Assembly: GCA_963718895.1 (NCBI GenBank) | Contig: CAVRAG010000008.1 | Location: forward strand, 1,472,001-1,536,000 | Reading direction: 5' to 3' | Length of the DNA stretch: 64,000 nt | Source: an uncultured Nitrososphaerota archaeon | GTDB lineage: Archaea > Thermoproteota > Nitrososphaeria > Nitrososphaerales > Gagatemarchaeaceae | In this document: in pieces, positions 220 through 63,649 of the stretch | How the letters are laid out: every line of letters begins with the position of its first letter | Position numbering within the stretch: position 1 is the first letter of the stretch | Translations under genes and position numbers: made by a program | Notes under the pieces: generated by a model | What the model was told of the DNA's origin: nothing | Database searches by the model: none | What the model saw: the letters and a program-made list of their open reading frames with translations, nothing else

Positions 220-243
220 GGTTCATTGCGCCTCCGCCTGGGC
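220..243 (+). repeat. Cassette-boundary repeat (core only)
   Basis: GGTTCATTGCGCCTCCGCCTGGG. Confidence 0.8.
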
Positions 244-253
244 GCGACGGGCA

Positions 254-976
254 TCAGACGGCCACAATCAGAGCTATCCCGAGTGCCGTCAGAAGGCCGA
301 AGACGAGCAGCGGCAGACCAAGCACGTATCCCAGCGTCCTGTTCCTGAGCAGAGAGACACCGGACAGAATGAAGGCTGGGAGATACAGTCCCATGTCCAG
401 TACGTGAATCGGGTTGACCGGCAGCCCGGCCTGAGTCACGCTTGATGGCACTGTCCCGTTGAGGAGCGCGGGTATGTCTTCGCTCAACCAGAGGAAGTAG
501 AAAGAGACGCCGAGGAGTACGAGAACCAGACCCAACGCAATCCTGGACCTGGTCCCAATCGTGGACCTCTCCCTCACCCTCTCAAAGTCGACGCGGACGA
601 CCCCGCCCAGGAAGGTGTACACGAGCAGGCCCAGCGCCGCCACGTAGAGCAAGAAGAGGTCGTTGAAGGATGAGGCGAAGGCGTAGATGACGAAAGCGTA
701 GATGAGGAAGAGCAGCACTCCAGCCCATACTTGAAAGCCTCTCACGGACCTTCTGACCGTGAGATACGCTGCAACGAGGAGGATGACGACGGCAACGACG
801 TTCGCCACGTCCTGTGCCCGGGCCTGCATCGCCCAGTTGGACGTGTCTCTGGCATAGGTGCTGGCCACGAAAATCCCCGAGGCGCTGGACACCAAGGTCA
901 GAATCGAAATCAGGACCGTGGACCACAGGTAGATCTCTGGCACGGCGAACCCATCGCTTTGAGCTTCGGCCTTCAT
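254..976 (-). CDS. Multi-pass membrane protein, unknown function
   Basis: About 7 hydrophobic segments; likely start MKAEAQ at 976 inside track ORF 254..1162. Confidence 0.7.
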   Translation of the reverse strand: MKAEAQSDGFAVPEIYLWSTVLISILTLVSSASGIFVASTYARDTSNWAMQARAQDVANVVAVVILLVAAYLTVRRSVRGFQVWAGVLLFLIYAFVIYAFASSFNDLFLLYVAALGLLVYTFLGGVVRVDFERVRERSTIGTRSRIALGLVLVLLGVSFYFLWLSEDIPALLNGTVPSSVTQAGLPVNPIHVLDMGLYLPAFILSGVSLLRNRTLGYVLGLPLLVFGLLTALGIALIVAV

Positions 977-1564
977 CTCGGTAGGCGGCCGAGAGTGGTG
1001 TGCTATAAGTCCGGACAGGGTCATTCTTCCCCTCAGAGGCACTCGGGCCAAGATCGAAGATATTCCTTGGTTGACGATGGTGTTTATGGCTAAACATCGC
1101 TGTGTAAGCTCCAACCTGAGACCGGAAAGATGTCGAACCTTCAGAATGCATGGGAATCGCAATCCGGATTACTGCGAATCACCCGGACGCGCCCTGTTGG
1201 CGCGATCTTGGTAGGATGAAACCAGGCGCCCGGTCCAGCTGGGAACCGAGGCGACCAGATAGGCGGTCGACCTGAGCGTCCGATAGAATGGTCGGCCCCC
1301 GCTCACCACAGCATAGAGAAACGCTTCCGAAATAGGGGAGTATTGAGATCGCAAGCGCCGGAGCAGCTAGGATGCTGACGCCCACGTCGCTGGTTCTGAC
1401 CGACCTGGTCGTGATACTCGTCTTGGGCTCGGTTTGCTTCATTCCGTTCACGCCCTTTGTCCGGGGGTTCGGCGGGCATAGCGTTCATTGCGCCCTGCCG
1501 GATCGAGTCTGTGCTTCACGAACGACCGTGGAGCTCATTAACCTTCGACGTCCCTAGGACAGCC

Positions 1565-2344
1565 ATGCAGCAGAAGTACACGACCGACATGTACGAAGGG
1601 ATGCTGGCGGAGACCGTGACGATTCGCGGTCATGGAGACGAGACGATCAACGCTTACTTCGCGCGCCCTCTCGGCCCCGGGCCGTTCCCCGGCGTGGTGC
1701 TGATCCACCACGCGCCAGGATGGGATGAGTTGTACAGGGAATTCACACGTAGGTTCGCCCACCGTGGGTATCTTGCAATCTCTCCGAACATCTACTTCAG
1801 GGTGGGGCACGGCTCCCCCGAAGATGTGGCCGCGATGGTCCGCTCGGCCGGAGGGCTGCCGGACGACCAGGTCGTCGGGGACGCGGTGGGCGCTGCGGCC
1901 TATCTCAGGTCCCTGCCCCAGAGCAACGGGAAGGTCGGAGGGTTCGGGACCTGCTCTGGTGGACGGCACGTGTACCTGGTTGCCTGCAGGACGAAGGCAT
2001 TTGACGCAATCGTGGACTGCTGGGGCGGCAGAGTAGTGATGACACCACAGGAACTCAATCCCAAGATGCCGGTCGCGCCGATTGTGTACACCAAGGATTT
2101 GGCCTGCCCCGTCCTCGGACTCTTCGGGAAAGACGACCAGTCACCCAGCCCTGAGCAGGTGGCGAAACAGGAGGAGGAGCTGAAGAAGTACGGGAAGTCC
2201 TATGAGTTCCACATGTACGATGGGGCGGGTCACGGCTTCTTCTACTATGACAGGGCAGCCTACAGGCAGGAGCAAGCCGTCGACGGGTGGAAGAAGGTCT
2301 TCGCGTTCTTCGAGAAGAACCTCGGGGCGGCGGGCTCGCGTTAG
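1565..2344 (+). CDS. Dienelactone hydrolase family protein
   Basis: PGVVLIH, nucleophile motif GTCSGG, GAGHGF catalytic His. Confidence 0.9.
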   Translation: MQQKYTTDMYEGMLAETVTIRGHGDETINAYFARPLGPGPFPGVVLIHHAPGWDELYREFTRRFAHRGYLAISPNIYFRVGHGSPEDVAAMVRSAGGLPDDQVVGDAVGAAAYLRSLPQSNGKVGGFGTCSGGRHVYLVACRTKAFDAIVDCWGGRVVMTPQELNPKMPVAPIVYTKDLACPVLGLFGKDDQSPSPEQVAKQEEELKKYGKSYEFHMYDGAGHGFFYYDRAAYRQEQAVDGWKKVFAFFEKNLGAAGSR

Positions 2345-2358
2345 GAGGGCGAGAGACC

Positions 2359-2649
2359 GTGTGTACAGGCAAAGTCGAGACGGCACAGGCATCGGGCAGC
2401 GGCAAGGGGACAGAGGGCTGGTTCAAGCTTGAGAAACTCAGCGTAACCTACGACTGCTCGTATCATACGTCCATGGCGCAAGCCATCAATGTTGAACTGT
2501 TCAGCGAGACTGAGGGACCCTCTGCACGGGTTGCCGTAGAGTTGGCCCCGACTTCGGCGATGGAGCTGGTCCGCGCCATCCTTGCTTCGCTTGCCAAGGC
2601 CGGTCTCGACCCCGGAGAGGTCGCCCTGGGGGCCACTGCTACCCCGTGA
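2359..2649 (+). CDS. DUF6295-like protein
   Basis: GTG start MCTGKV..GSGKG..GWF..ARVAVEL; directly downstream of the hydrolase. Confidence 0.65.
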   Translation: MCTGKVETAQASGSGKGTEGWFKLEKLSVTYDCSYHTSMAQAINVELFSETEGPSARVAVELAPTSAMELVRAILASLAKAGLDPGEVALGATATP

Positions 2650-2685
2650 GAGCGCAGCACGAGGTTCTGGGATGTGTTCTGAGCC

Positions 2686-2727
2686 GATTGCACATCCGCC
2701 GGTCCACTTCATCCACATGATTAGCTA
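2686..2727 (+). repeat. Cassette-boundary repeat (degenerate)
   Basis: GATTGCACATCCGCCGGTCCACTTCATCCACATGATTAGCTA. Confidence 0.65.
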
Positions 2728-2801
2728 ACGGAGAGCGTTCACCGACGCGGTGCGATAGGTGAATCGGCATGACCATGATTTTACGCCTGCTGCCTCCGCT
2801 G

Positions 2802-3647
2802 CTAGTCGACGTTGAAGTACCAGAATACCGCGCCGTTGTTCGATGACCCGTGGGCATTACCCCCGCGGGCGGCGTGTACCGACACGATTACCGGGACCGC
2901 CGCGGTCCAGGAGTAGCCCACGGTGCCCTGCTGACCGCTGCAGGTTATCTGCACGACCGAGGACTGGGGGTTTGGCGCCTCGAAGGCGAGTGTGAGATTG
3001 TGAGATTGGGCGTCGACGGTCGCGATCACTGTGTAGGTGTAGTTCACGGCCTGACTCCCCTTGCAGAGTCCCGTTATCGAGTACCCGATGGTCCCCTCCC
3101 CGGTCACGACGGCAGACCCTTTGCTGACGTCGGCGATGAACTTACCAGAACCTTGTATTGTGGTGGTCGATCCTGAGGAACTCGAGTTCTGGGTGTAGCC
3201 GAAAGTGACGTTGTAGACGCCGAATTGGCTCGTGCTCGACGTACTCGTGGAAGTCGGGGTGCCGGAGGATGACGACTGGGTCGAACTCGGGACTGTGAAG
3301 GTCAAGCTGGAGCTCGAGGTGCTCGTTGCCAGCGACGAAGACGACTGGGTGGCTGTCTGGGATGAAGACTGGGATGAAATCTGCGACGAGCTCTGGCCGC
3401 TCGAGGACGAACTTCCCTGGCTGCTCGTTCCGCTCCCGCCCACCGAGACGCATGGCAGAGTTGTGGTGGTGGTCGTCGAGCCCAACGGGATTGTAAGGAC
3501 GGTCGAGCATGTCGTCGTCTGGGACGAGTTCTGGGAGGCCGTCACGAAGAGGAAGTACGCTGCTGCCGCAGCTGCGATCAGGAGGATTGCGATGAGGGCA
3601 ATCGCTATTGCCGTTATCCCTCTCCTGCCCTCGACTAACAAAATCAC
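2802..3647 (-). CDS. Membrane-anchored Ser/Thr-rich surface protein with class III-like signal peptide
   Basis: GRRG-ITAIAIALIAILL N-terminus, long S/T linker, beta-rich C-terminal domain. Confidence 0.7.
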   Translation of the reverse strand: MILLVEGRRGITAIAIALIAILLIAAAAAAYFLFVTASQNSSQTTTCSTVLTIPLGSTTTTTTLPCVSVGGSGTSSQGSSSSSGQSSSQISSQSSSQTATQSSSSLATSTSSSSLTFTVPSSTQSSSSGTPTSTSTSSTSQFGVYNVTFGYTQNSSSSGSTTTIQGSGKFIADVSKGSAVVTGEGTIGYSITGLCKGSQAVNYTYTVIATVDAQSHNLTLAFEAPNPQSSVVQITCSGQQGTVGYSWTAAVPVIVSVHAARGGNAHGSSNNGAVFWYFNVD

Positions 3648-3978
3648 GTAGTCGGCATATCCAGCCCACTCCAGGGAAATAAGTCTTTGATTCCCGGCGT
3701 CGGTTTTTCAGGGGTGAACGGAACCCCAGGAGGCCTCCAGGAGGACGAGATGACTGTCTCCTTCGCCTCGATGAGCGGGTCGGCCTTCTCGAGATGGACC
3801 AGGATTCGTCTCTCATTGCCAGCCGTGCACCCTCTCGGTCCCCATGATTCGATCATGATCTCTGCTGTAGCATGTATCTCAGCCTTCTACGCGGTCCATG
3901 GTTTTGGGAGGAGTCGGCGGTGCAATCGAATCGGTCTGAACCCGGGAGGTCCAGAATCTTCAGCCGATTGTCGTCCTA

Positions 3979-4032
3979 AGATGCCGAAGAAGACAAGTGC
4001 CATGTTAGGCTTCATCGCGCCTCCGTCGGGGA
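3979..4032 (+). repeat. Cassette-boundary repeat with partial long left arm
   Basis: AGATGCCGAAGAAGACAAGTGCCATGTTAGGCTTCATCGCGCCTCCGTCGGGG. Confidence 0.8.
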
Positions 4033-4446
4033 ATGATTCGGTACGGGAATGTACACGGCTTCCCGTCCTAAGGCGTTCTTGATGGTCGAGTCTGTCGTGA
4101 TGAGGATCGGTGCGGTGGCTTCTCTCGTGGCGAGGGCGAAGCAATCTGCGAGCGAAAGTTCTCTCTTCTTGACCTTCCAAAGGGCCGCCTGTCTTGTGAT
4201 CTGCACCTCGGGCGCGACGACCTTAATCCTGGAGCTGCGAACCTGAAGATACCAGACCTCGGCCGTTTCGACCCCCTTCTTCTCGGCAGTCTTGTAGTAG
4301 AACTCGGCGAGATTCACCTCAGAGACGAAACCGCGTGCCTTTCCTGAAAGGACCCTATCAAAGTAGGGCTTCACAGATGTCGCTCCAGCATAGTAAAGGG
4401 AAAGCGCCCCCGCGTCCAGCGCGTAGCTACGCGCGCTCAGACTCAA
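4012..4446 (-). CDS. vapC: VapC PIN-domain toxin (copy 1; copy 2 at 48938)
   Basis: YALDAGAL, EVNLAEF, LSLADCFALA, ITTD; its stop TGA lies inside the repeat core. Confidence 0.88.
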   Translation of the reverse strand: MSLSARSYALDAGALSLYYAGATSVKPYFDRVLSGKARGFVSEVNLAEFYYKTAEKKGVETAEVWYLQVRSSRIKVVAPEVQITRQAALWKVKKRELSLADCFALATREATAPILITTDSTIKNALGREAVYIPVPNHSPTEAR

Positions 4447-4660
4447 CTTCCTTTCTCCGATCCCTCGATATTTCGAGCGCAACCTCCAGCATCTCGTCTC
4501 CTCCTGCCCCAAAACTCTCTTCCATCGAAAGAGAGGGCTCGAGAAGAATTCGTCCTCCTTCATCTCTGATTATCACGGCGCGGCCGATCTTGAACTTCCT
4601 TCTGAGATACGCGGGGATGACCACCTGTCCCTTGGAAGACACGGGAACGACCTTTTCCAT
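4427..4660 (-). CDS. vapB: AbrB/MazE-type antitoxin
   Basis: VSSKGQVVIP..LRRKF; overlaps the PIN gene. Confidence 0.88.
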   Translation of the reverse strand: MEKVVPVSSKGQVVIPAYLRRKFKIGRAVIIRDEGGRILLEPSLSMEESFGAGGDEMLEVALEISRDRRKEVESERA

Positions 4661-4691
4661 GAAATCCGAGAAAGTAGGGCTTGTTTAAGTG

Positions 4692-4733
4692 TTTTACTTC
4701 CGTAGAGTTTTACTTCTAGAGCGATTTTACTTC
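4692..4733. promoter_or_regulatory. Putative TA operator: three direct TTTTACTTC repeats
   Basis: TTTTACTTC at 4692, 4708 and 4725 beside TTTAAG upstream of the antitoxin; largely conserved in copy 2 at ~49618-49658. Confidence 0.55.
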
Positions 4734-4754
4734 CAGAGTCCGGTTCGAGAGGGT

Positions 4755-5273
4755 TCATTGCGCCTGATGATCAGCTAAATTCTGAACTAACTCCCTGGAG
4801 AGCAAACATGTCTGCTCGAGCGTCAAACTCGATATGCTCTTGTCCAAGTCGGGAGACCCCTTCACAGCTGTCTGAAGTTCGAATCGGTCTCCCCCTGTTA
4901 TCACGCTCCAAGAGCTTTCTGGGTTCGAAATTCGTCCATACATGTTTGCGAGGGCGATGAACCTGTTTCTCACCGCACGCGAGTAGGTTTCGTTCTCCAT
5001 CAGCGCCAGGAGTCCGATGCCTGTCTGAGTTGATTCGCAGAGATACTTGAGAGCGGCAATCACGGCAAGGGGCTTCTCTCCCCTGAGGCCGAAACGTGCC
5101 TGCGACGACAGCATCTCGATGAAACGTCTGACATTATCTTCTGCAGCAGCAGGATCCATCCTGAGATCATTCGGACCTGCGCCCTGAACCCGTATCGTCG
5201 TGTTGCATCTGGGGCAGATGAGTTGGGCAGAATAAGCTTTCATTCGCGAGCCGCAGGACGGGCAGAAGTTCAA
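4755..5273 (-). CDS. Zinc-ribbon hypothetical protein
   Basis: FCPSCG..CPRCN N-terminus; stop codon supplied by the repeat core. Confidence 0.65.
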   Translation of the reverse strand: MNFCPSCGSRMKAYSAQLICPRCNTTIRVQGAGPNDLRMDPAAAEDNVRRFIEMLSSQARFGLRGEKPLAVIAALKYLCESTQTGIGLLALMENETYSRAVRNRFIALANMYGRISNPESSWSVITGGDRFELQTAVKGSPDLDKSISSLTLEQTCLLSRELVQNLADHQAQ

Positions 5274-5443
5274 GGGCTTGAATCACTGTCTCCTGCCGTC
5301 CATAAATGATTTTTCTACATGCGCGCGAGACTCAGGGCCTCTAGCCATTTCTTGCTCTTGCACCTCCATAGAAGGTGTTGTGCCCTGCCAGGGTGTTCGT
5401 TGCGCCTCAGCCGCGACTCTTCATCAACGCGGGTTGGAGATGG

Positions 5444-5863
5444 TCAGGCTCCGAGCCACACCGTTTCGGGAAGGGCCTTGAAATGCTCGTCACCCGTGAC
5501 GACTCTCGCCTTGTTCCTCTTTGCCGATGCAAGGACGATTCCATCAAAAAGACTGGGTTTTCTCAGGCCTGAAGAGGAAGCCCTCCTGTCGAGCTTGACG
5601 GTGGCCTTGGCCGCCTCTAGGGCTAGGTCGGCATCGATGCAAACGATCTCTGAAGTCTCGAGTATTGTGGCCAGCCGCTTCCGGACGGTCGACTCGGCTG
5701 CACCTTCGCGAACATACTTCCTCGCCACCTCGGCAAGGACGGTGCCAGGCGTCAGCACATTTTCGGCATCTTCGATGACTCTCTTGGCCCTCTGCCCTGT
5801 CTCACTGCCCAGGAAGACCTCTATCCAGGCATAGGCGTCAACTACGATCTTCGTCACGATCAT
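5444..5863 (-). CDS. vapC: VapC PIN-domain toxin
   Basis: VVDAYAWIE, VLAEV, SLFDGIVLA, VTGDEHF. Confidence 0.9.
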   Translation of the reverse strand: MIVTKIVVDAYAWIEVFLGSETGQRAKRVIEDAENVLTPGTVLAEVARKYVREGAAESTVRKRLATILETSEIVCIDADLALEAAKATVKLDRRASSSGLRKPSLFDGIVLASAKRNKARVVTGDEHFKALPETVWLGA

Positions 5864-6044
5864 CCTCTGTGAAGGGAGTCACCTTTCCGCTGTCCGCGCC
5901 GAACGCCTCCTCGAGGAGCGCCTTGCGGTGCCGCACGACCAGCATTCGTATGGTCTCCTCCAGGGTTCTGGCGTGTATACCCTTCTGCAGCGCTGCCAGC
6001 TCGCGAGCTGTGTCCTTAGAGACTTTTACGGTGGTCGCATCCAT
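5838..6044 (-). CDS. vapB: VapB-type antitoxin (RHH-like)
   Basis: TTVKVSKDTAREL..TLEETIR; overlaps the toxin start. Confidence 0.8.
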   Translation of the reverse strand: MDATTVKVSKDTARELAALQKGIHARTLEETIRMLVVRHRKALLEEAFGADSGKVTPFTEDDRDEDRS

Positions 6045-6177
6045 GCTGAGTATACAGTATACTGGAATATTAAAGCATCCCTGGCTCAAGCGCGTAGGGA
6101 TTCACATAGCGTGTTCGGCGGACTTCCTGAGCAAATCCGTATTACATTTATATACATCTTGGCGTCATACAAATCCA

Positions 6178-6435
6178 ATGCCGGTGGTGACGGTTCGCGT
6201 ACCCGAGGCGCACAAGCGGAAGATGGACGAGCTAAGAGAAGTCAACTGGAGCGAGGTGATCCGGAGAGCGATAGAGGCGAAGATCGAGGAGGAAGAGACG
6301 TGGCACCGTATCGACGCCGCCAGGCTGAGGAAGGCAGGGACCTCGACCGACGAATTGAGGCGGAAGGTCGAAGGGTGGGATAGCCTCTCAGAGATAAGGA
6401 AGTGGCGCAGGTCTCATGGTGACAGTGGTAGCTGA
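6178..6435 (+). CDS. vapB: VapB antitoxin (RHH)
   Basis: MPVVTVRVPE..VNWSEVIRRAI; TTTATA upstream at ~6147. Confidence 0.85.
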   Translation: MPVVTVRVPEAHKRKMDELREVNWSEVIRRAIEAKIEEEETWHRIDAARLRKAGTSTDELRRKVEGWDSLSEIRKWRRSHGDSGS

Positions 6436-6877: not shown

Positions 6878-6901
6878 AGTCGTCAGGATGATTTAATCCC
6901 T

Positions 6902-23310: not shown

Positions 23311-23314
23311 GATT

Positions 23315-56804: not shown

Positions 56805-57049
56805 TGTGCCTCAAGTTCTATGACTTCTTCGTCACGCAGCCTCTTTGAGGCGTATTCGAGAGCGGCCCGAATGTCCTCGACCGTTAGGTATGGGTACTCC
56901 TTCAGTATCCCCTCCTCGGTGATTCCTGAAGCCAGGAGTTCCACTATCAAGTAAACTGCTATTCTAGTCCCCTTGATTACGGGCTTTCCACCCAACACCC
57001 CCCTGTTCGTGCTGATTCTGCCAAGCCTGCTTCTCAATCTGGATTGCAA
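56801..57049 (-). CDS. DUF433 antitoxin (copy 2)
   Basis: One amino-acid difference from 34701..34949. Confidence 0.92.
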   Translation of the reverse strand: MQSRLRSRLGRISTNRGVLGGKPVIKGTRIAVYLIVELLASGITEEGILKEYPYLTVEDIRAALEYASKRLRDEEVIELEAQ

Positions 57050-57184
57050 GAAGGCTCGCTTCTATAAAAAGTAGGCCGACGACCTATTCAAGGATGAGCC
57101 ATGGTTAGGGTTCATCGTGCCTCGCCGGGGCATTTCATCCACGTCGGGCGATTGAGATACAAATGCTGATGAACAGTGCTCTTT

Positions 57185-57655
57185 TCAGCCGGGGTTGGCG
57201 CTGGCCCTTGACATCTTCCGGGTCTCACTCCCTTTGCCCGCGGAGATGTCGTCGATTGCTTCCACCCAAGGGACCCTCCTGAACGCTTGATCGTGCGTCG
57301 CTATCCTGACAACCCCAGAAGCCTGCATCGTCGCCAATATCACGCAGTCTCGACTTCCCAGCCCCGTGGACGCGTGCTCCAAGATCATCCCAAGTGCGGC
57401 ATCCGCAATCCGGTGGTCCAGATCAAAGATTCTGAGCGTTGCGAGGCTTTGAATCCTCTCCATCAGGTCTGAGAATTCTTGTTTCGGGAGCATCCTCAGA
57501 TAATGAGCCACCTCGAATAACGTGATGTAGTTTGTGATAATTCCCTCTTTGATCGCCTTCCGCATGGTCCTGAGAACGCGCTCGTGTTCCGGAAGCCTCG
57601 AGTCCAACCAGTAGATCCAGTAGTTCGAATCGACGTAGATCAAACTCGGGCCCAA
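57185..57655 (-). CDS. vapC: VapC PIN-domain toxin (copy 2 of 19835)
   Basis: Close paralog of 19835..20305. Confidence 0.9.
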   Translation of the reverse strand: MGPSLIYVDSNYWIYWLDSRLPEHERVLRTMRKAIKEGIITNYITLFEVAHYLRMLPKQEFSDLMERIQSLATLRIFDLDHRIADAALGMILEHASTGLGSRDCVILATMQASGVVRIATHDQAFRRVPWVEAIDDISAGKGSETRKMSRASANPG

Positions 57656-57888
57656 ATCTCCTTCAGCCGCAGCGGGTCGGTCGCCCTTGCCTTGCTCCCT
57701 CTCTTCAGGGTGCCTTCGGTTTGCTTGATGAAGGCTTCGGCGTCTAGGGTGGATTTCAACACGATGATGGAACCGCCTCTATCAGCGATGCTGACCCTGA
57801 CCTTGCTGCCTTCCGCCAGCCCGAGCTCTTTCCGTACCTCGTCAGGAATCACTACAGGGCCTTTTGAGTCAACGACGGTCTCCGTCAA
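57640..57888 (-). CDS. vapB: AbrB/MazE-type antitoxin (copy 2)
   Basis: Close paralog of 20290..20538. Confidence 0.88.
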   Translation of the reverse strand: MTETVVDSKGPVVIPDEVRKELGLAEGSKVRVSIADRGGSIIVLKSTLDAEAFIKQTEGTLKRGSKARATDPLRLKEIWARV

Positions 57889-57925
57889 CTGGTTCCCACT
57901 TTGATTCCCACTTTCACTACTTAAA

Positions 57926-57972
57926 GGTTCGTTGCGCCTCCGCCGGGGCATTTAATCCACACGTTGGGCTAT
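57926..57972 (+). repeat. Cassette-boundary repeat
   Basis: GGTTCGTTGCGCCTCCGCCGGGGCATTTAATCCACACGTTGGGCTA. Confidence 0.92.
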
Positions 57973-58102
57973 AGCAAAGTCGACCGGCTGAACACGTCGC
58001 CCGAAATGCTTCCCAGTGTGCACATCACCCTCTCCTTCCGGGAGGGTAGGTGTAGTCCGAAAGGGTTAAAACGGTCTGGGCACCCAAAACAGGTGAACCT
58101 AA

Positions 58103-58372
58103 ATGGGTGCCCAAGTCAAGGTCCTCCAGAAAGGAAAGGTTACGATTCCATCAGAGATGAGGGAAGCGCTCGGGGTGGATGAAGGGGATTACGTGACAAT
58201 GGAAATGGTAGATAGTCATCTTGTAATCTCTTCCCCTAGGACAATACCGAATCCCACGGAAGCAATAAGCAGGCTGGTATCAGATGTCGCAGTGAAGGAG
58301 CCCCTGGACAGTGAAGCAGCGAAGGCCGGGGCGGTCAGGATGAAGAGGAAGCTCCAGAGGGGCTCGAAGTGA
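58103..58372 (+). CDS. vapB: AbrB/MazE-type antitoxin
   Basis: KGKVTIPSEMREALGVDEGD. Confidence 0.88.
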   Translation: MGAQVKVLQKGKVTIPSEMREALGVDEGDYVTMEMVDSHLVISSPRTIPNPTEAISRLVSDVAVKEPLDSEAAKAGAVRMKRKLQRGSK

Positions 58373-58767
58373 AGTTCGTCGATTCTAACGTCTTCCTGTA
58401 CACCCTGATCGGGAGTCCAAAAGCCGACTACGAGACCTCGAGAAGCATACTCAAGAGGATTGAAAAAGGCGAGGAGGCCACGACTAGTTTGGCGGTCCTG
58501 CAAGAAGTGGTAGATTGGCTCGAGTACAACGGTAGAAAGAGGGAGGTCGAAGTCTTCCTTACGGCGGTCAACTCATACACAAGGATGCGAAAGGTGAGCA
58601 ACAGGTGGAGGGACTATCCGAGAGCCTCGGCCGAGGCCGGAAAAGCGGCCATTGACTTCGTGGACGCGTTGTCTCTTGCCGTAATGAGAAGAGAGGAGAT
58701 GAACGAGATCTACTCCAACGACAAGGACTTCGACAGGGTTGTGGGCATAAAGAGAGTGTTCGAATAG
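58369..58767 (+). CDS. vapC: VapC PIN-domain toxin
   Basis: FVDSNVFL, VLQEV, FVDAL, IYSNDKDFD. Confidence 0.92.
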   Translation: MKFVDSNVFLYTLIGSPKADYETSRSILKRIEKGEEATTSLAVLQEVVDWLEYNGRKREVEVFLTAVNSYTRMRKVSNRWRDYPRASAEAGKAAIDFVDALSLAVMRREEMNEIYSNDKDFDRVVGIKRVFE

Positions 58768-58772
58768 AGTTC

Positions 58773-58829
58773 GCCAGCTATAGGGTTCATTGCGCCTCCG
58801 CCGGGGCATTTCATCCACACGTTGGACTA
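58773..58829 (+). repeat. Cassette-boundary repeat (full length)
   Basis: GCCAGCTATAGGGTTCATTGCGCCTCCGCCGGGGCATTTCATCCACACGTTGGACTA. Confidence 0.93.
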
Positions 58830-58867
58830 CAGTAGCAGAGACTTATCTACGTGAGCCGTGCCCGCGA

Positions 58868-59308
58868 CTAGTCGTCCTTGGTCTGACGCTTAGGTGCTCC
58901 TGCCTCCGGCTGCTTTTCGAACAGGGCAACTCCGTACCTGACAGCCTTCTTTCTCAAGTCCTCGTCATAGGAGAAGAGGGGCAGCTTCGTCCGCTCGGCG
59001 ACTGACAGGATTACGAGGTCGTTGTAGTCATGGTAGGTCTTCATGCGCCCGACCGCAAACTCGATGTCGTCGGGAGTGCAGGGCGCGAAGACGGACTTTT
59101 CGTTCGTCAGGTACTCCTCGACCTTCGCCTTGGCATCGGTGAGCTTCAGATCCCTGCCTTTGAAGAACCAAAGGAACTCATGGAATGCCATTCCGGGAAT
59201 GCACCATTTCTCAGCTGAATCGAGGCCGCGGGTAGCCGCTTCATGAAGCTCGCTGTCCTCGAAGGTATCGAAGATGAGTACGTTAGTGTCTATGACGATT
59301 GTCGTCAC
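58868..59308 (-). CDS. vapC: VapC PIN-domain toxin
   Basis: VIDTNVLI, HEF, NDLVIL, FSYDEDL. Confidence 0.9.
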   Translation of the reverse strand: MTTIVIDTNVLIFDTFEDSELHEAATRGLDSAEKWCIPGMAFHEFLWFFKGRDLKLTDAKAKVEEYLTNEKSVFAPCTPDDIEFAVGRMKTYHDYNDLVILSVAERTKLPLFSYDEDLRKKAVRYGVALFEKQPEAGAPKRQTKDD

Positions 59309-59532
59309 TCGGTCCGACCCCTCTCTATCGCCTCTTCGATCTCCCTCACCGACAGAGTTTCTCCAAGTCTGAGCGTCTTTCTCTTTCCACGCACCGGCGG
59401 CTTGACCCTCACCACCGCCTCTTCTTCGTCATATTCCACCATAACAGAGTCGCCCTTCAAGATCTTCGCCCTTTCCCTAACGTCCTTAGGGATCGTCACC
59501 TGGTAATTGCTGTTGACCTTGCTGACTGGCAT
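59305..59532 (-). CDS. vapB: AbrB/MazE-type antitoxin
   Basis: KVNSNYQVTIPKDVR; palindrome GGTCTA-T-TAGACC at 59537-59549. Confidence 0.9.
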   Translation of the reverse strand: MPVSKVNSNYQVTIPKDVRERAKILKGDSVMVEYDEEEAVVRVKPPVRGKRKTLRLGETLSVREIEEAIERGRTE

Positions 59533-59612
59533 AATAGGTCTATTAGACCAATCTATCTACTTAAGCATTGCCATGCTTAGGGTTCGTCGCGCCTCCGCCA
59601 GAGCATTTCACC

Positions 59613-59929
59613 TCAGGCTCTCTCCGCAGGACAAAGCGCGCCGACAAGGAGGAGCGTCGGATGCGCGATGAGGTAGTATCCTCCGTCGATGAACAAGACC
59701 CTTTGGCCGAAGAAGCAGAAGGTTATCGACCCCAGCCCGTCGCCCGGTATGGGATCGGCAACCACCGTTATGGTGGACGTGGCACCTTCGCTGCTCACGG
59801 CCGTCGTGAACACGCCTCCGCTACCCGGTACGTCAGCCCGCACCGGCACGACAGCGCGAAGACCACGAAGAGCGAGAGAGCCACCAGACCCAAGACCGCA
59901 TAGGTCAGGACTGTCTTGAGCTTCCTCAC
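59613..59929 (-). pseudogene. Small membrane-anchored protein, frameshifted
   Basis: GTG start MRKLKTVLTYAVLGLVALSLFVVF shifts frame into VVPVRADV..GSITFCFFG; preceded by the shared promoter at 59960-59980. Confidence 0.45.
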
Positions 59930-60031
59930 GCCGCATCAGCCCCATCGGAATCGATTCTCGATTAATAGTTATGTCCGAACGTATCCGTTTCTGCGGCTCA
60001 CCGGGTCGGGAAGGGAATCGTCTCTTGTTGC

Positions 60032-60295
60032 TCATTCCTTCAAGAGTTGATTCAATTCAAGAATCTCGACTGCGACTAGCTGATTGCCGTGATCTCCGTA
60101 GAAGAAGACTGCCAATCCATCCTTTGATGGTTCCCCGATAGGCTTCTCTACATGTCTGAATCTGACGTACAGGTCGCCATGTTCGCCGTAATCCACCGCC
60201 AGAACGCTCCTGGGAAGCTTCATCTCGTACCTCTGCTCCACCTTCGACAGTATCTTCCTCAGGTCCAAGTCCAAAATCGTCGTTCTGCTCGTCAT
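60032..60295 (-). CDS. DUF2283-like putative antitoxin
   Basis: DYGEHGDLYVRF..LVAVEILE. Confidence 0.6.
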   Translation of the reverse strand: MTSRTTILDLDLRKILSKVEQRYEMKLPRSVLAVDYGEHGDLYVRFRHVEKPIGEPSKDGLAVFFYGDHGNQLVAVEILELNQLLKE

Positions 60296-60590
60296 GACAC
60301 GTTGTACCTCTTGTTCTTCCTCTTCTGGTTGATTATGAATGCCGTCTTAATTAACCCTCTATCTGCTTCCGCAACCTTGTAAATCACCACGAGAAAATGG
60401 CTTGGGTCAATACGCTTCAGCGCGTGAAACCCGCCGCGCTCGTCTGTGTGTAATTCATCAGGGTTGGATACCGCTTGCATCAATATGCCTGGGTCCCTGC
60501 CCACCTCCGGGTGCCTGAATTGCACGTGGAGCCGTCGTCTCTCGAGGTCCGCCGCGAGGAAGGCCTGGTGCTCGTCGAGAAGATTGTCCA
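60292..60590 (-). CDS. RelE/BECR-fold putative toxin; start uncertain
   Basis: HVQFRHPE..VSNPD..FLVVIY..GLIKTAF. Confidence 0.6.
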
Positions 60591-60624
60591 CCGAAGCGGA
60601 GTCTACGGCTCCTGAGTCGGAAGC

Positions 60625-60682
60625 GCCAGCTATAGGGTTCATTGCGCCTCCGCCGGGGCATTTCATCCACACGCTGGGCTAT
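60625..60682 (+). repeat. Cassette-boundary repeat (full length)
   Basis: GCCAGCTATAGGGTTCATTGCGCCTCCGCCGGGGCATTTCATCCACACGCTGGGCTA. Confidence 0.93.
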
Positions 60683-60715
60683 GGTAAGTCGAGGGAAGGA
60701 CCGGGTCGTCCTCGC

Positions 60716-61141
60716 TCACAGCCGTGAATCGCCCTGCTGCCCTTTCAGAGCTTCAAGTGCCTCCGCCACCGATTCGACCCTGATCCCCCTGAATTCCCTG
60801 AGATTCAAGAGGTGTGCGTCGCCCGACACGATCACGTCTGCCCTTCCGTCTCTGGCGGTCCTCAGCACCTCATCATCGGGGTTCTCGAAGACCCTGAATC
60901 TCGACCTTATGCGGACGCGGTGCGCCTGATGAAGCAGGACCTTGAGGAACCGGGCGACGTCGTCGTCATGGACGTACCTCCTGAGTCTCTCCTCCCCAGT
61001 CACCCTGAGAAACTCGTCGAGGATGGGTTCGGAGATCAGCAGCGTGTCGCCGGAGCTGAAAAGACGCTCCAGGAGCTGTCGCGACGTTCCCTCAGTTATC
61101 AGGGCTGAGACTAGGACGTTTGTGTCCAGGACGATTCTCAA
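60716..61141 (-). CDS. vapC: PIN-family toxin
   Basis: RIVLDTNVLVSA, PDDEVL, IVSGDAHLL. Confidence 0.92.
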   Translation of the reverse strand: MRIVLDTNVLVSALITEGTSRQLLERLFSSGDTLLISEPILDEFLRVTGEERLRRYVHDDDVARFLKVLLHQAHRVRIRSRFRVFENPDDEVLRTARDGRADVIVSGDAHLLNLREFRGIRVESVAEALEALKGQQGDSRL

Positions 61142-61424
61142 TCGCGCGACGCCTCGTCTCTTTTCCGTGCCTGTGCCTTTGGACCAGTTCGTTGACCTCC
61201 TCCTCTGTTACCACTTCCTCCCCTCTCCTGGAGTCTATCGCCTTGAAGACGGACTTGAGCTCGTTCACGACGTCTCCGATCTCGAGTCTCTTCATTATCA
61301 GCGAGTCTGAGTAGGGATAGACCAGCAGCTTGGTCTTCGGCCCTATCCCGAGCTTCCTCCTGAGGCTCTGGGGTATCACCACCTGACCTTTGCTGCTGAC
61401 CACCACGATGTCGGCGGTCTCCAT
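61092..61424 (-). CDS. vapB: AbrB/MazE-type antitoxin
   Basis: VSSKGQVVIPQSLRRKLGI. Confidence 0.88.
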   Translation of the reverse strand: METADIVVVSSKGQVVIPQSLRRKLGIGPKTKLLVYPYSDSLIMKRLEIGDVVNELKSVFKAIDSRRGEEVVTEEEVNELVQRHRHGKETRRRAIENRPGHKRPSLSPDN

Positions 61425-61498
61425 GCCATCCCGTTCTTACTTTCTTACCTAAATAGCTGTCGTATGGATATTGCGCCTCCGCCGGGGAACGTCAGAAG

Positions 61499-62319
61499 TC
61501 AGGCTGGCTTCGCTACTGCTAGAACTCTGAACGTCGAGAATGAAGCTGACTTCGGATCACCTCTCGACCCGAGGTCTATTTCATAGAACGCGAGCGGTTG
61601 GAACCCGCAGCCTTCCAGAAGTTCACGTACGTGCGAGATCGTGTAGATCCTTATTGTGTGAGCCTCCGAGAAGGAATCGACGCCTTCTTCGTATCGTGGT
61701 CGACGACCATCAGGTCCCACCCAAAGCTGAGCTTGTTGGTCTGCGGGTCATACTTGCTCAGGTGCAACCGGATTATCGACTTGGACCCGTCCTCCACCTT
61801 GTCCCAGCTTGTGTTTCCCGACCGGCTCTCGTCAGCAGGGTACACCGCTGAATCTTGTCCGAACTCGAACACCAGCAAACCGTCAGGTCTCAGAACCTTC
61901 CGGGCGCCAGCGAGGAATCTCCCGACGTCATCTCTCGTGAGCAGACAGCCGAACCCACCGAAGAGGACCGCGACGATGTCGTACTTGTCTTTGAGCTGAA
62001 TCTTTCGCATGTCCATCTTAAGAAACACAGGGTTCGTCTTTGAGGCGGTCTTGCTTCTCGCCACCCGTAGCATGTCTCCGGAGACGTCTATGCCGGTCAC
62101 CTTGCATCCGTCATTTGCCAGCATGAAGGTGTAGTTGCCCGTGCCGCAAGCGACGTCAAGGATTGAGCCCGACTTGCCCAGCTTCTTGTGCTTAGCAAAG
62201 ACTCTCTCCAGGTAGTCGGTCAGAGCTCTGTAGTCGACATTCTTCGAGGAGAGGAGGTCATAGTAGCGAGCCATCCTTGAGTACGCGGCGGTCGACTTCT
62301 CAGACTCAGCCTTTGGCAA
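61499..62319 (-). pseudogene. Class I SAM-dependent methyltransferase, frameshifted at ~61690
   Basis: ILDVACGTG; the C-terminus FSEAHTIRIY..LLEGCGF lies in ORF 61499..61720. Confidence 0.82.
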
Positions 62320-62390
62320 AGCTCTACCCAGTCAGCATAGAATGCTAGATGATGAAAAGCCGTGGGGGTCCTAGCACTCTCAAAGTTTGA

Positions 62391-62942
62391 TCAGCTGCTG
62401 CCAAACATTTGCTTCTTGTGGACTTTCCATTCCAGGAAACCCTTCTCTCGAGAGACTTCCATAACTATGGTAATGTTGTCAAACCAGCAGTCGAAATGCT
62501 TCTCTTTGCTATTCGTGAATTTCACGATTGCGTCATACTTCTCGTCGCATCCTTCCGCCAATGTCGAGTGAAAGTGAAGGTTCTCGCCGTCGTGCTGATC
62601 CCATGTGAGCGATTCCACATTCCTCAACTCCAATACCAACCCGAGAAACGTCTGCCTCGCTTCGCCCGAAAGCTGAACGTTCAGAAAAACGACTTTGGGG
62701 CGGAATCCTCCAAAGCCTCCAACTGTCACCGGAGTTCTCTTGTGGGTCTTGCAGAATTTCTCAAGGGCCTGGTCTATGGCCTCGACCTTGTCCGTCTCGA
62801 ACCAATACTTCAATGTGAAGTGGGCCGGGACTCCCTCGGTCTTTGTTTTTGCGAGCCCAAAATCGGTCGCGATGTCATCGACAAGCGATTTGTGATACTG
62901 CTCGACCGGCCCACTTAGGAAACAGGCAAGAGCGTATCTCAA
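62391..62942 (-). CDS. 2H phosphoesterase (2'-5' RNA ligase-like) protein
   Basis: Two HxT motifs, PAHFTLK and FHSTLA; start approximate. Confidence 0.82.
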   Translation of the reverse strand: MRYALACFLSGPVEQYHKSLVDDIATDFGLAKTKTEGVPAHFTLKYWFETDKVEAIDQALEKFCKTHKRTPVTVGGFGGFRPKVVFLNVQLSGEARQTFLGLVLELRNVESLTWDQHDGENLHFHSTLAEGCDEKYDAIVKFTNSKEKHFDCWFDNITIVMEVSREKGFLEWKVHKKQMFGSS

Positions 62943-63027
62943 GAATCTGTTTGAGGTGTCTCCAGGCAATAAATCTGTTTGGAGCACCGAAGGTATGCGG
63001 ACCATGGAGAAGCGGTAATCCATACGA

Positions 63028-63078
63028 GGGTTCATCGCGCCTCCGCCAGGGCGGATGACAAGCCCAACGTGTGGATAG
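63028..63078 (+). repeat. Boundary repeat with inverted right arm
   Basis: GGGTTCATCGCGCCTCCGCCAGGGC followed by AGCCCAACGTGTGGAT, the reverse complement of ATCCACACGTTGGGCT. Confidence 0.8.
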
Positions 63079-63095
63079 AACATCTCTAATGTCGA

Positions 63096-63509
63096 TTAGG
63101 GGGCGCCCATCATGCATGGCCCCATCGCGTGTGATGGGTCGCAGGTCACCTCGTACCCGCTCGGGTAGGTGATGATTACCGTGCCGTTAACATACCAATC
63201 TGCTATGGAACCCTCCGGTGCACCCCTGTCGCACAACACGCCACCTGAGCCGTTCTGATAGCATCCTGTTGCATCGAGGACTCCCTGAGAGGAAATGCCC
63301 TTGATTGAAAGAGAGTAGCGCATCGATCCAGTAATCACAGCCCCTGCTCCGACAGTCCAATAGGCTACCGATCCGTACCGCAGGAAGTTGCAGCCGTTTC
63401 CAGGGCAATGGTATGTTCCGGACGGAATTCCGTAGCTGACTACCGGGACGAAGAAGATGAAGGCGATGACGAGTATCGCAACCACTGAGACAGTTGTCTT
63501 ATGCTTCAC
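63096..63509 (-). CDS. Membrane-anchored Cys-rich small protein
   Basis: N-terminal TM ending FFVPVV, YGSVAYWTVGAG, three Cys pairs. Confidence 0.65.
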   Translation of the reverse strand: MKHKTTVSVVAILVIAFIFFVPVVSYGIPSGTYHCPGNGCNFLRYGSVAYWTVGAGAVITGSMRYSLSIKGISSQGVLDATGCYQNGSGGVLCDRGAPEGSIADWYVNGTVIITYPSGYEVTCDPSHAMGPCMMGAP

Positions 63510-63549
63510 TTTCCAGCGACCCCAAAGTCAGATGTATGTTAGGTCGATT

Positions 63550-63649
63550 CTGAGATATAGTTTTGTCCGAACAGCAGAACCTCTAGCCCATTCTTGATTT
63601 GAGATGCCGTAAAATGGGCAAGTGCCATGTATAGGGTTCATTGCGCCTC
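63550..63649 (+). repeat. Long-form boundary element
   Basis: ATAGTTTTGTCCGAACAGCAGAACCTCTAGCCC..GAGATGCCGTAAAATGGGCAAGTGCCATGTATAGGGTTCATTGCGCCTC. Confidence 0.9.

Follow-up and report, generated by a model that had tools for sequence, protein, structure and literature searches.

The hypervariable cassette array described here, in the genome of a Gagatemarchaeaceae-like soil thaumarchaeon (G000), is anchored at the single 23S rRNA gene of its host, and the repeat that separates its cassettes is a copy of the final ~40 nt of this gene together with the 3′ trailer (i.e., the 3′ strand of the pre-23S processing stem). With 71–77 copies of the repeat and ~77 small gene cassettes over 126 kb (G000:C8:1441759-1567974), the array continues past both ends of the window, i.e., the whole stretch of 64,000 nucleotides that was analysed. 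It looks like an undescribed, integron-like route of gene collection and shuffling, and no published description of such a 23S-end cassette array was found in the literature. The archaeal nature of the organism, as proposed in a preliminary description of this DNA, was borne out.

About 65 copies of the repeat had been announced for the window; the repeat itself is real, but the number falls to ~56 plus a few partial copies (e.g., 19771-19803 and 2687-2734), since a 19-nt core (with at most 4 mismatches) and an nhmmer profile (based on 67 copies from the array, E ≤ 0.01) each gave 56, the profile also matching 90 copies genome-wide, 71 of them in the array. The 57-mer originally given matched the window twice at ≤3 mismatches (58773-58829 and 60625-60681) compared to 0 matches in 100 shuffles, and its central 23-mer matched 22 times, all on the + strand, with 0 expected. 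The other claims on the repeat agree with our counts: all copies lie in one orientation (56/56 in the window, 71/71 of the array profile matches), they follow one another at roughly one per kb (55 intervals of 302–3972 nt, with 788 nt as the median and 1153 nt as the mean), and the centre is the best conserved portion (72–99% at positions −2 to +19), the universal part being the 23-bp core only, CCCGGCGGAGGCGCAATGAACCC on the gene strand. Beyond the main array, the repeat forms a small cluster at C8:1.19-1.22 Mb and a mixed-orientation cluster on contig C4.

Indeed, the origin of the repeat is found at the rRNA operon. A native query of 121 nt (23S end and trailer) matched the internal copies with E-values from 1e-13 to 1e-26, and the 5′ flank of the 23S gene is predicted to pair with the 3′ end and trailer (cofold energies of −105 and −77 kcal/mol), the 23-bp core being located in the trailer segment that forms the 3′ strand of the processing stem. 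The 5′ half of this stem occurs once in the genome. The first core lies 5–8 nt past the end of the Rfam LSU model in G000, G009 and G021, and in the sister species G007 the core at 1591813 abuts the true 23S 3′ end; all 4 of the related genomes under study have their array beginning within 5–8 nt of this 3′ end and running in the direction of the rRNA operon. The GTTGGGC end, previously read as half of an attC site, is present in the sequence but belongs to the mature 23S rRNA, an origin that had been missed. Some copies extend beyond the core, on one side into mature 23S sequence (up to ~60 nt) and, in some, on the other side into the trailer (up to ~65 nt); both arms are present at 8 of the 76 internal junctions, the left arm alone at 20, the right arm alone at 10 and no arm at 38. 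In 71 junction pairs with only the upstream cassette in common, non-consensus letters are shared up to position −4 (18–30 of 46–61 per position) and drop to 6/80 from −3 to +19. Of the 22 genomes of the genus, 19 carry the core, compared to 0 of 16 other families of the order, and other genera of the same family also carry multiple 23S-end copies.

Cassettes are separate units, as had been anticipated: duplicates run core to core, and the sister species has mostly different cassettes in another order. Four intragenomic duplicates are bounded by cores (Table 1). As an example, all ends of both copies of the Fic/Doc-like cassette fall within cores, and the second copy of the PIN + AbrB-like cassette directly follows the second copy of the 34236..35042 cassette, whereas the first copies of the two lie 14 kb apart. 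At the same locus, G000 and G007 have 8 cassettes in common (4 of them core to core), with syntenic distal flank genes. The order of these common cassettes is scrambled. One common cassette (57926..58806) carries ~60 nt of 23S-like sequence at its 3′ end in both species. As previously described, genes are more common on the minus strand (63 of the 92 window ORFs called with an in-house codon-usage scorer, with 29 on the plus strand) and intervals hold one or few of them (one ORF in 27 intervals, two in 17); 11 intervals have genes on the opposite strand only. Among the best 25 Pfam families of these 92 ORFs, PIN (14) and MazE/AbrB (6) come first, followed by accessory enzymes and transporters, and the cargo comprises PIN, ParE and HicAB toxin-antitoxin pairs together with accessory enzymes.

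Table 1. Junction sites (copies of the repeat, with nhmmer scores in bits) and selected cassettes, in window positions
Feature	Position	Strand	Score or remark
Window share of array	214..63649	-	56 junction sites, 55 cassettes
Junction site	214..248	-	25.8 bits
Duplicated cassette	3999..4765	-	second copy 48924-49690, 93% identity
Junction site	4000..4036	-	23.4 bits
Junction site	5384..5436	-	23.2 bits
PIN-domain toxin, small upstream partner ORF	5444..6044	-	PF01850 at 3.4e-18
Junction site	6895..6947	-	28.8 bits
Junction site, 23S-like arm (left, 26 nt)	7612..7669	-	38.6 bits
ParE-family toxin, DUF2683 partner	7695..8201	-	
Junction site	8278..8307	-	19.9 bits
Junction site	8778..8819	-	21.6 bits
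Junction site	9312..9338	-	22.6 bits
Junction site	9614..9654	-	25.4 bits
Junction site	12856..12887	-	26.5 bits
Junction site, 23S-like arm	13828..13877	-	36.1 bits
Junction site, 23S-like arm	14207..14265	-	47.2 bits
Junction site	16102..16156	-	39.1 bits
Junction site	17617..17669	-	23.0 bits
Junction site	18390..18438	-	32.3 bits
Fic/Doc-like gene (+ strand) cassette	18397..19061	.	duplicate 51075-51735, 91% identity
Junction site	19036..19074	-	22.9 bits
PIN + AbrB-like cassette	19769..20633	-	duplicate 57120-57984, 90% identity
Junction site, 40-nt 23S-like arm	20565..20622	-	36.8 bits
HicA / HicB pair	20654..21144	-	
Junction site, 23S-like arm	21192..21248	-	42.8 bits
Junction site	21848..21892	-	32.7 bits
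Junction site, trailer-like arm	23256..23297	-	36.1 bits
Junction site	23970..24019	-	32.7 bits
Junction site	25156..25196	-	33.0 bits
Cassette common to G007	25158..25863	.	94% identity, core to core, other array position
Junction site	25833..25888	-	43.4 bits
Junction site	27701..27734	-	21.9 bits
Junction site (weak)	29123..29168	-	17.2 bits
Junction site	29871..29917	-	25.1 bits
Junction site	30296..30347	-	29.2 bits
Cassette common to G007	31968..32778	.	90% identity; native site likeness is the 23-bp core only
Junction site	31972..32017	-	32.9 bits
Junction site	32751..32791	-	24.2 bits
Junction site	33475..33529	-	41.6 bits
Junction site	34230..34283	-	41.0 bits
Duplicated cassette, core to core	34236..35042	.	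second copy 56327-57141, 97% identity
Junction site	34998..35051	-	46.4 bits
Junction site	36925..36965	-	30.7 bits
Junction site, long trailer-like arm	38113..38138	-	21.9 bits
Junction site	38738..38772	-	32.2 bits
Junction site	39650..39692	-	22.9 bits
Junction site, trailer-like arm	40377..40423	-	37.6 bits
Junction site (weak)	41069..41094	-	17.3 bits
Junction site, both arms	42494..42550	-	43.8 bits
Junction site	43579..43624	-	22.9 bits
Junction site	47368..47421	-	38.9 bits
Junction site, both arms	48135..48192	-	46.1 bits
Junction site	48923..48962	-	37.9 bits
Junction site	49670..49714	-	24.6 bits
Junction site	51065..51113	-	31.4 bits
Junction site	51709..51757	-	29.0 bits
Junction site	52344..52388	-	27.5 bits
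Junction site, both arms	56316..56373	-	45.8 bits
Junction site	57098..57148	-	28.8 bits
Junction site, 23S-like arm ~60 nt	57917..57972	-	44.3 bits
Cassette common to G007	57926..58806	.	95% identity
Junction site	58773..58829	-	50.5 bits
Junction site	59568..59614	-	34.7 bits
Junction site, 38-nt 23S-like arm	60625..60682	-	50.1 bits
Junction site	61470..61506	-	19.3 bits
Junction site	63024..63054	-	26.1 bits
Junction site, trailer-like arm	63623..63649	-	23.3 bits

Despite the single-orientation sites and the many toxin-antitoxin cassettes, which resemble an integron, it is almost certain that this is not an ordinary one, in which IntI recombines attC sites. In agreement with the preliminary description, the site is not of attC type: single-stranded DNA folds of the 56 junctions on both strands had mean z values of +0.1 and +0.24 (i.e., no hairpin), R″..R′ box pairs occurred in only 2 of 112 strand-windows (56 junctions, 2 strands), and IntI is absent, each of the four tested recombinases scoring 20–33 bits with TIGR02249, whose cut-off is 265.

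A driving recombinase had been placed outside the window, and none is indeed encoded inside, the driving role of any recombinase being still inferred. The main array of G000 has no integrase in or beside it (the nearest PF00589 match is ~100 kb off), and the searches turned up neither circular cassettes nor empty sites or excision joints. The G007 genome has 41 cores and one PF00589 match, which has no core beside it and is separated from the rRNA operon by ~30 kb, and no match to the P0001 family at E ≤ 1e-10. Among public core-bearing loci, 1 of 113 has an integrase. P0001 itself is an intact 430-aa Xer-like tyrosine recombinase located 1.4 kb upstream of a co-oriented core, within a ~27-kb core-flanked element (C8:1189537-1216206). 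In addition, divergent Xer-like integrases, likewise candidate enzymes, head co-oriented core runs at G021:C3 (two divergent arrays), G020:C32, G011:C218 and G009:C3:121 kb. These core-adjacent integrases belong to at least two divergent families (27–30% identity inside one), both patchy (17–18 of 31–46 genomes), and there is therefore no single cognate enzyme.

As a somewhat probable explanation, we favour a site-specific accretion, in which integrase-less cassettes were recombined one after another into an attachment site that overlaps with the 3′ end of 23S. Small circular cassettes would each bring one copy of the site, mimicking the chromosomal attachment site, and a tyrosine recombinase supplied in trans would join them into the 23S-proximal site or any existing junction, and could also excise them. 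Repeated rounds would lead to head-to-tail cassettes in a single orientation with an intact 23S gene, and would let cassettes move within and between genomes. Note that the site-specificity of the exchange, the acting enzyme and the circular intermediates are what we infer here. Minor core variants are co-inherited with neither neighbouring cassette, a pattern that concerted evolution explains as well as recombinase-site selection does.

With homology arms of up to ~160 nt, ordinary homologous recombination would also be permitted, and an unlikely alternative keeps the same architecture and origin while cassettes move by general recombination between 23–160-nt copies (through deletion, circle formation, re-insertion and exchange after DNA uptake), with no dedicated recombinase. 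The lack of a resident integrase in the main arrays, the ~60-nt and ~65-nt arms around some cores and the inheritance of core variants, as predicted if gene conversion homogenises the copies, all agree with it, and some archaea recombine with very short homology. However, 38 of the 76 junctions have only the ~23-bp core in common, at least one cassette has moved between species with the core alone in common, the universal block has a sharp edge (−4/−3), and several secondary arrays are headed by integrases; the first acquisition of a site by each new cassette would also be left unexplained. It is more doubtful that many larger plasmids or viruses, each encoding an integrase, were inserted serially at the 23S 3′ end as integrative elements and cut down to 1–3 genes, so that cassettes would be remnants and not mobility units. 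Tyrosine-recombinase-integrated elements form arrays by site re-use, as stated in the consulted part of Krupovic et al. 2019 (PMC6563490), and the ~27-kb integrase element, an 18-kb block without cores inside the array and the sparser, weaker sites of its distal portion would suit such a history. In contrast, the median unit is short with genes or toxin-antitoxin pairs usually intact, a given single cassette can be found again, core to core, in other places and genomes, and integrase remnants were found in 0 of 56 window intervals.

Two further explanations concern transcripts. A role at the RNA level appears improbable, in which transcription from the rRNA promoter would continue through the array, and each junction, as a 3′ half of the processing stem, would cut or mark cassette transcripts by pairing with the single 5′ half or by recognition by processing enzymes. 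Indeed, the core coincides exactly with the portion of the 23S processing stem that is bulged, variation in the core is greatest at positions 11 and 13, both within the predicted 3′-strand bulge region (positions 11–12, AA, unpaired; position 13, U, in a G-U wobble) while helix positions are 89–99% conserved, and the 63 minus-strand ORFs run the same way as the rRNA operon. Nevertheless, the genome has just one 5′ half, the intervals with opposite-strand genes only do not fit, and such a role would by itself neither create copies nor shuffle cassettes. Those intervals also argue against the very improbable reading of the repeat as a shared promoter and ribosome-binding leader of the minus-strand genes (GGAGG, six nucleotides, ATG), which the gene-strand core, GGAGGCGCAATG, would recall: the frame opened at the core closes within 90 codons in 69 of 77 array copies, many copies have ACG, ATA or another triplet instead of the ATG, and the sequence is that of the 23S trailer.

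Compared to known systems, accretion at the 23S end has several relatives. Xer-dependent elements, such as IMEX at dif and the pdif modules of Acinetobacter plasmids, use 28-bp palindrome-like sites, whose orientation alternates in pdif modules. They are like the array in having modules without their own integrase, short conserved sites and, as proposed here, a recombinase encoded elsewhere, but our site is asymmetric and always in the same orientation, and no protein reached the XerA cut-off. Integrase-less ‘cis-mobilizable’ elements pile up in tandem beside integrative elements that target tRNA or tmRNA genes. Elements integrated at the 3′ end of such genes (see also Islander, PMC4383910) have several features in common with the array: their attachment site overlaps with the 3′ end of a stable-RNA gene, which stays intact, displaced end copies in direct orientation lie at each junction, and tandem pile-up proceeds via site re-use; here, in contrast, the 23S rRNA end with its processing-stem trailer serves as the target, and the units are ~0.8-kb integrase-less cassettes in dozens instead of a few islands. 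As far as the consulted text of a thaumarchaeal survey goes, 68/68 mapped targets were tRNA genes, intergenic regions and protein-gene ends, with ‘rRNA’ appearing 0 times (Krupovic 2019, PMC6563490). The HVR2 of SAR11, which adjoins the 16S-23S rRNA genes (‘Pelagibacter, resolved’, bioRxiv 10.64898/2026.04.03.716430), is likewise a positionally conserved hypervariable gene pool with variable content between genomes; unlike the array, it has tRNA genes at its borders and includes the 5S gene (320 kb away from the array here), and the sections consulted report no repeated attachment sites between its genes.

Finally, sedentary chromosomal integrons (Vibrio superintegron type) and archaeal integrons, as described in the part of Ghaly et al. 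2022 (PMC9668308) consulted, have in common with the array long rows of short, mostly one- or two-gene cassettes with one site between each, sites alike within a genome, abundant toxin-antitoxin genes and contents that differ between relatives. They differ in their folded attC sites, replaced here by a 23-bp core that is asymmetric, unstructured and derived from the 23S rRNA trailer, and in their IntI and attI, which the rRNA-anchored array does not have. According to the same part of that paper, the longest archaeal attC array on one contig has 12 sites, far below the 71–77 sites counted here. Altogether, the array appears to resemble the islands found at tRNA genes, but at the scale of integrons.

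The repeat corresponds to the end of the 23S rRNA gene and to the sequence that follows it. In the source genome (G000), the Rfam 23S model stops at the right end of the array, at the rRNA operon, and the first core (the universal 23-bp part of the repeat) begins 8 nt beyond, the same gap being 5–6 nt in the related genomes G009 and G021. In the sister species (G007), the Rfam alignment stops early at an insertion of ~1.1 kb, and the true 23S 3′ end abuts a core. The LSU model was matched over 1–2987 in all four genomes, and the array was co-oriented with the 16S-23S operon in 4/4. The last ~40 nt of mature 23S rRNA make up the left arm of the repeat, whereas the core and the right arm are 3′ trailer, and the GTTGGGC motif that the preliminary description had taken for an attC-like box belongs to this mature rRNA end. 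Pairing between the 5′ flank of this gene and its 3′ end and trailer gives a long predicted processing stem (−105 and −77 kcal/mol), in which the core spans the bulged part (helix CCCCGGCGG(A), G, GCGC, bulge AA, helix UGAACCCUA). A bulge-helix-bulge (BHB) processing motif is expected at such a stem position; the modelled region appears BHB-like only, as its minimum-energy fold is without the textbook 3-4-3 geometry. Note that the 23S genes of the genus (3.9–5.1 kb at four rRNA loci) are longer than the 2987-nt model and therefore carry insertions, and that Rfam group I introns were found in the 23S copies of G007 and G009.

A repeat profile built from 67 array copies matched 56 times in the window, 71 times in the array and 90 times in the whole G000 assembly (3.13 Mb, 11 contigs, 80.5% complete), and the 19-nt core at ≤4 mismatches likewise gave 56 copies in the window, fewer than the ~65 announced in the preliminary description. 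The 57-mer typed there behaves as a consensus, since it was found with ≤3 mismatches at only 2 places (versus 0 in 100 shuffles); its centre is highly repeated, and the central 23-mer gave 22 matches, on the plus strand only. The single orientation was confirmed by the profile, with all 71 array copies on the same strand. Contig C8 holds 85 core matches, of which 77 form one 126-kb array in one orientation, and a smaller core cluster lies elsewhere on this contig. The second cluster, on contig C4, is of mixed orientation (10 forward and 8 reverse cores), with a divergent 23S-end-like arm on three copies, the donor of which was not found among 60 other genomes of the family. Apart from this C4 cluster, the genome-wide scatter in both orientations that dispersed repeats (MITE or REP type) would display was not observed.

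The median length of the 55 window intervals is 788 nt; they contain one ORF in 27 cases and two in 17, according to gene calls made with our own codon-usage scorer, and the genes lie mostly on the minus strand (63 of the 92 window ORFs), as first reported. Pfam assigned PIN domains to 14 of these ORFs and MazE/AbrB to 6, in addition to DUF433, Fic/Doc, methyltransferases, dehydrogenases and an ABC transporter; the toxin-antitoxin cassettes include PIN, ParE+DUF2683 and HicA/HicB pairs. No tRNA gene was found in the window. One NHL-repeat protein gene (Pfam NHL) displays internal tandem repeats of about 126–130 nt. Inside the array and outside the window, an 18-kb core-free block with large ORFs (1587, 775, 744 and 582 aa) may be a larger inserted element.

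Coordinates of the features discussed (G000, source genome; G007, sister species; G021, related genome; C, contig; L, rRNA locus)
Feature	Location	Second location
Window	G000:C8:1472001-1536000	
Main array	G000:C8:1441759-1567974	
End of Rfam 23S model match	G000:C8:1568000	
True 23S 3′ end abutting core	G007:1591813	
Genes with orthologues beside G007 array	G000:1431969-1435184	
Core-to-core duplicate	window 18397-19061	window 51075-51735
Core-to-core duplicate	window 34236-35042	window 56327-57141
Core-to-core duplicate	window 19769-20633	window 57120-57984
Core-to-core duplicate	window 3999-4765	window 48924-49690
ABC-transporter/regulator block	G000:C8:1445364-1448396	window 52412-55446
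NHL-repeat protein gene	window 27765-29003	
Core-free block	G000:C8:1541305-1559046	
Smaller core cluster	G000:C8:1.19-1.22 Mb	
Element with intact recombinase P0001	G000:C8:1189537-1216206	
Core beside two-gene cassette	G000:C8:1216206	
Group II introns	G000:C8:1203643-1205397	G000:C8:1207319-1209073
Small antisense ORFs (also G021, G020, G011 loci)	G000:C8:1189615-1189800, 1219412-1219600, 1223514-1223729	G000:C5:7963-8124
IS110-type match	G000:C7:726-950	
Second core cluster	G000:C4:263569-302704	
Two diverging core arrays	G021:C3:292071-339463	
23S genes longer than model	L123:8001-12002, L120:3000-6885	L121:3479-7443, L122:2988-8131

Archaeal Rfam models gave the best scores for the G000 rRNA genes, and public contigs in which the exact 20-mer core occurs bear the labels of Nitrososphaerales or Thaumarchaeota MAGs, several of them ‘Candidatus Gagatemarchaeum stordalenia’. 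Two short contigs with the exact 20-mer (L031 and L072), labelled as bacterial MAGs (Acidimicrobiales, Acidobacteria), are probably mis-binned archaeal contigs. The 22-mer core (≤2 mismatches) occurred in 19 of 22 genomes of the genus, in 1 of 2 from other genera of the family and in 0 of 16 from other families of the order. In addition, a 121-nt query made of the 23S end and trailer showed that this sequence is multicopy in several other genera of the family too (at least 19 in genome G060, 14 in each of G043 and G056, 11–13 in G041 and G055). The exact 20-mer core had 0 matches in a viral contig collection; 16-mer matches at 63 viral loci all scored ≤18 bits with the profile, and five that were inspected are look-alikes made of an RBS plus start codon in unrelated sequence; we regard the 63 loci as chance matches.

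Four duplicates within the array are of high identity and bounded by cores, and two duplicated cassettes are neighbours in one place and 14 kb apart in the other. A 3-kb ABC-transporter/regulator block also occurs twice (82% identity), one end lying 45 nt from a core. The G007 array (41 cores over 65 kb) has the same landmarks as that of G000, namely the 23S gene on one side and, on the other, orthologues of G000 genes (70–83% amino-acid identity). Only 8 cassette-sized matches were found between the two arrays, in scrambled order; four of them extend exactly from core to core in both genomes, and one of these four has nothing beyond the 23-bp core in common with the site. A two-gene cassette beside the core that ends the ~27-kb element of contig C8 also adjoins cores on C4 and in G007. 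Over its distal 32 kb, the G000 array loses site quality (Spearman −0.22, p = 0.065), and this weakly fits an increase in cassette age with distance from the 23S gene. In four public DNA runs, made up of short assembled contigs, repeat copies were the site of every one of the 5 joints and of most loose ends, and real rearrangements are not separable there from other junctions of this or related genomes.

In agreement with the preliminary description, no recombinase is encoded within the window; none lies beside the main array either, and none of the four PF00589 matches of G000 (80.5% complete) lies within 100 kb of the array. Serine recombinases gave 0 matches in this assembly, and the IS110 type gave one, at a contig end. 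G000 does encode Xer-like tyrosine recombinases of ~430 aa, a family marked by a C-terminal extension (9 matches, several broken). The intact copy, P0001, seems by our reading of its sequence to carry the expected Arg, His-x-x-Arg, His and Tyr motifs, and lies 1.4 kb upstream of a core and co-oriented with it, within a ~27-kb stretch between two direct-orientation cores. When both flanks of this element were searched in the genus (23 genomes including G000), none of the matches listed placed them on one contig within a few kb, as an empty site would. The element also contains two group II introns, each combining a 584-aa RT-maturase-HNH protein with a downstream Rfam Intron_gpII domain V/VI match. 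Both reverse transcriptase matches of G000 are these intron proteins, and a retro-copy origin, without other support, was discarded.

Integrases head co-oriented core runs in related genomes (G021:C3, with two arrays, G020:C32, G011:C218 and G009:C3 at 121 kb), usually with a small antisense ORF. These small ORFs (~60–70 aa, without Pfam match), found antisense beside integrases and near cores, form a family and may be directionality or regulatory factors. In G021, the two arrays diverge from a stretch of about 15 kb of ordinary-looking genes, an integrase gene standing at the head of each, and their cassette products mostly combine an N-terminal membrane anchor with Thr-rich regions. Some array-heading integrases fall into a second family, with a zinc ribbon, and the others have only 27–30% identity to P0001; both families are patchy. 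G007, with its 41 cores, has a single tyrosine recombinase, which adjoins no core. This ~440-aa zinc-ribbon protein, the only PF00589 match in G007, was considered as a housekeeping Xer or universal array enzyme; both ideas were rejected, because its occurrence is patchy (E ≤ 1e-20 in 17 of 46 genomes) and includes pseudogene copies. Among 113 public loci with cores, a single one contained an integrase.

The universal block of the junctions (one site copy between cassettes) covers positions −3 to +19 only. Among 76 internal junctions, 8 have both native-like arms, 20 only the 23S-like arm, 10 only the trailer-like arm and 38 neither; the 23S-like arm of the left-arm-only junctions measures 11–40 nt, and about 60 nt in one. 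Duplicates and cross-species cassettes indicate that, at a junction, the upstream cassette contributes the 23S-like piece, as part of its 3′ end, and the downstream cassette the trailer-like piece, as part of its 5′ end. Since the arms move with the cassettes, a circularised cassette would carry a single site mimicking the native 23S-end/trailer region. In 71 junction pairs with only the upstream cassette in common, non-consensus letters were common up to position −4 (18–30 of 46–61 per position) and almost never from −3 to +19 (6/80), and core variants are therefore not carried along by cassettes. Two explanations fit this: selection for an intact core in moving cassettes, or homogenisation of the copies. 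Crossover mapping from core variants has few informative positions, with only 11 pairs having just the right flank in common.

Altogether, we lean, with modest confidence, towards cassette accretion driven by a recombinase, the enzyme being supplied in trans by mobile elements. Homologous recombination could move cassettes within the same structure, and homogenised cores are one of the two outcomes that fit the junction pairs; we regard it as rather unlikely. That the array is a graveyard of decayed larger elements seems very unlikely. The remaining readings are the least probable of all. For RNA processing, the copies do derive from a processing stem, the 5′ half of which occurs once in the genome. 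As a leader, the gene-strand core, which reads GGAGGCGCAATGAACC, does offer an ATG, but this reading was dropped because the frame from it ends within 90 codons in 69 of 77 copies; the triplet itself is frequently ACG or ATA.

The reading as a true integron can draw on the single-orientation array of short cassettes, the content of which varies among relatives. An attC site is an imperfect inverted repeat (R″-L″...L′-R′) that folds as a single-stranded hairpin, and IntI is a tyrosine recombinase with an IntI-specific insertion, encoded beside attI at the array head. However, the 56 junctions, folded single-stranded on 2 strands, did not exceed shuffles in stability (mean z +0.10 and +0.24, 4/112 below −2; +0.47 to +1.56 in six single folds), R″..R′ box pairs occurred in 2/112 strand-windows, and four tyrosine recombinases that were tested scored 20–33 bits with the integron-integrase model TIGR02249 (cut-off 265); the non-attC nature of the repeat was thus upheld. 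Rfam at gathering thresholds gave no match in the window. Xer/dif modules (IMEX, pdif), with a ~28-bp site of two inverted arms, were also rejected, as the profile was one-stranded at 71/71 array copies and the 23-bp core shows no dyad by eye, and so was CRISPR-like or casposon-like insertion, with 0 matches to Cas1 (PF01867) in G000 (80.5% complete). A more far-reaching reading, which we consider decidedly unlikely, is a self-contained archaeal gene-capture platform, in which the pre-23S processing stem would be taken over for DNA and RNA roles and recombination would be the work of an enzyme, from the host or from a mobile element, whose type has so far had no link to cassette capture. The 23-bp trailer core would then be the attachment site for cassette stacking, cassettes would be transcribed by read-through from the strongest promoter of the cell, and the stem-strand copies at junctions would let the rRNA-processing machinery release or mark their transcripts.

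If the favoured accretion by a recombinase holds, a large exchangeable gene pool would exist throughout a family of archaea abundant in acid soil and peat, invisible to integron finders because its sites are not attC. As far as the literature was searched, this would be the first cassette array anchored at an rRNA gene, and the first attachment site that is a strand of a pre-rRNA processing stem. The analysis also provides a concrete and testable 23-bp site with a short list of candidate recombinases, and a marker for gene flow between lineages, since a stretch of 23S-like sequence moves with the cassettes; it also prompts one to ask whether cassette expression exploits the position behind the rRNA promoter. 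No description of an rRNA-anchored cassette array was found in the literature covered. In the available parts of these papers, Ghaly et al. 2022 (PMC9668308) describe archaeal integrons with canonical attC sites, 12 at most on one contig; Krupovic et al. 2019 (PMC6563490) place thaumarchaeal integrated elements at tRNA genes, intergenic regions and protein-gene ends, rRNA being unmentioned; and Sheridan et al. 2023, on Gagatemarchaeaceae, do not use the words integron, cassette, repeat, toxin, mobile or island. The nearest positional analogue found is SAR11 HVR2, located beside rRNA genes according to the part of the preprint available (bioRxiv 10.64898/2026.04.03.716430). As for elements targeting stable-RNA genes, the junctions are direct repeats of the target 3′ end, with the first copy within an intact 23S gene; an integrase encoded beside the att site is present for the 27-kb element and several secondary array heads, and absent for the window cassettes. 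The structure (direct repeats of the gene's end, intact gene and tandem accretion) corresponds to the product of serial site-specific integration at a stable-RNA gene's 3′ end, and its scale and gene content are those of a chromosomal integron.
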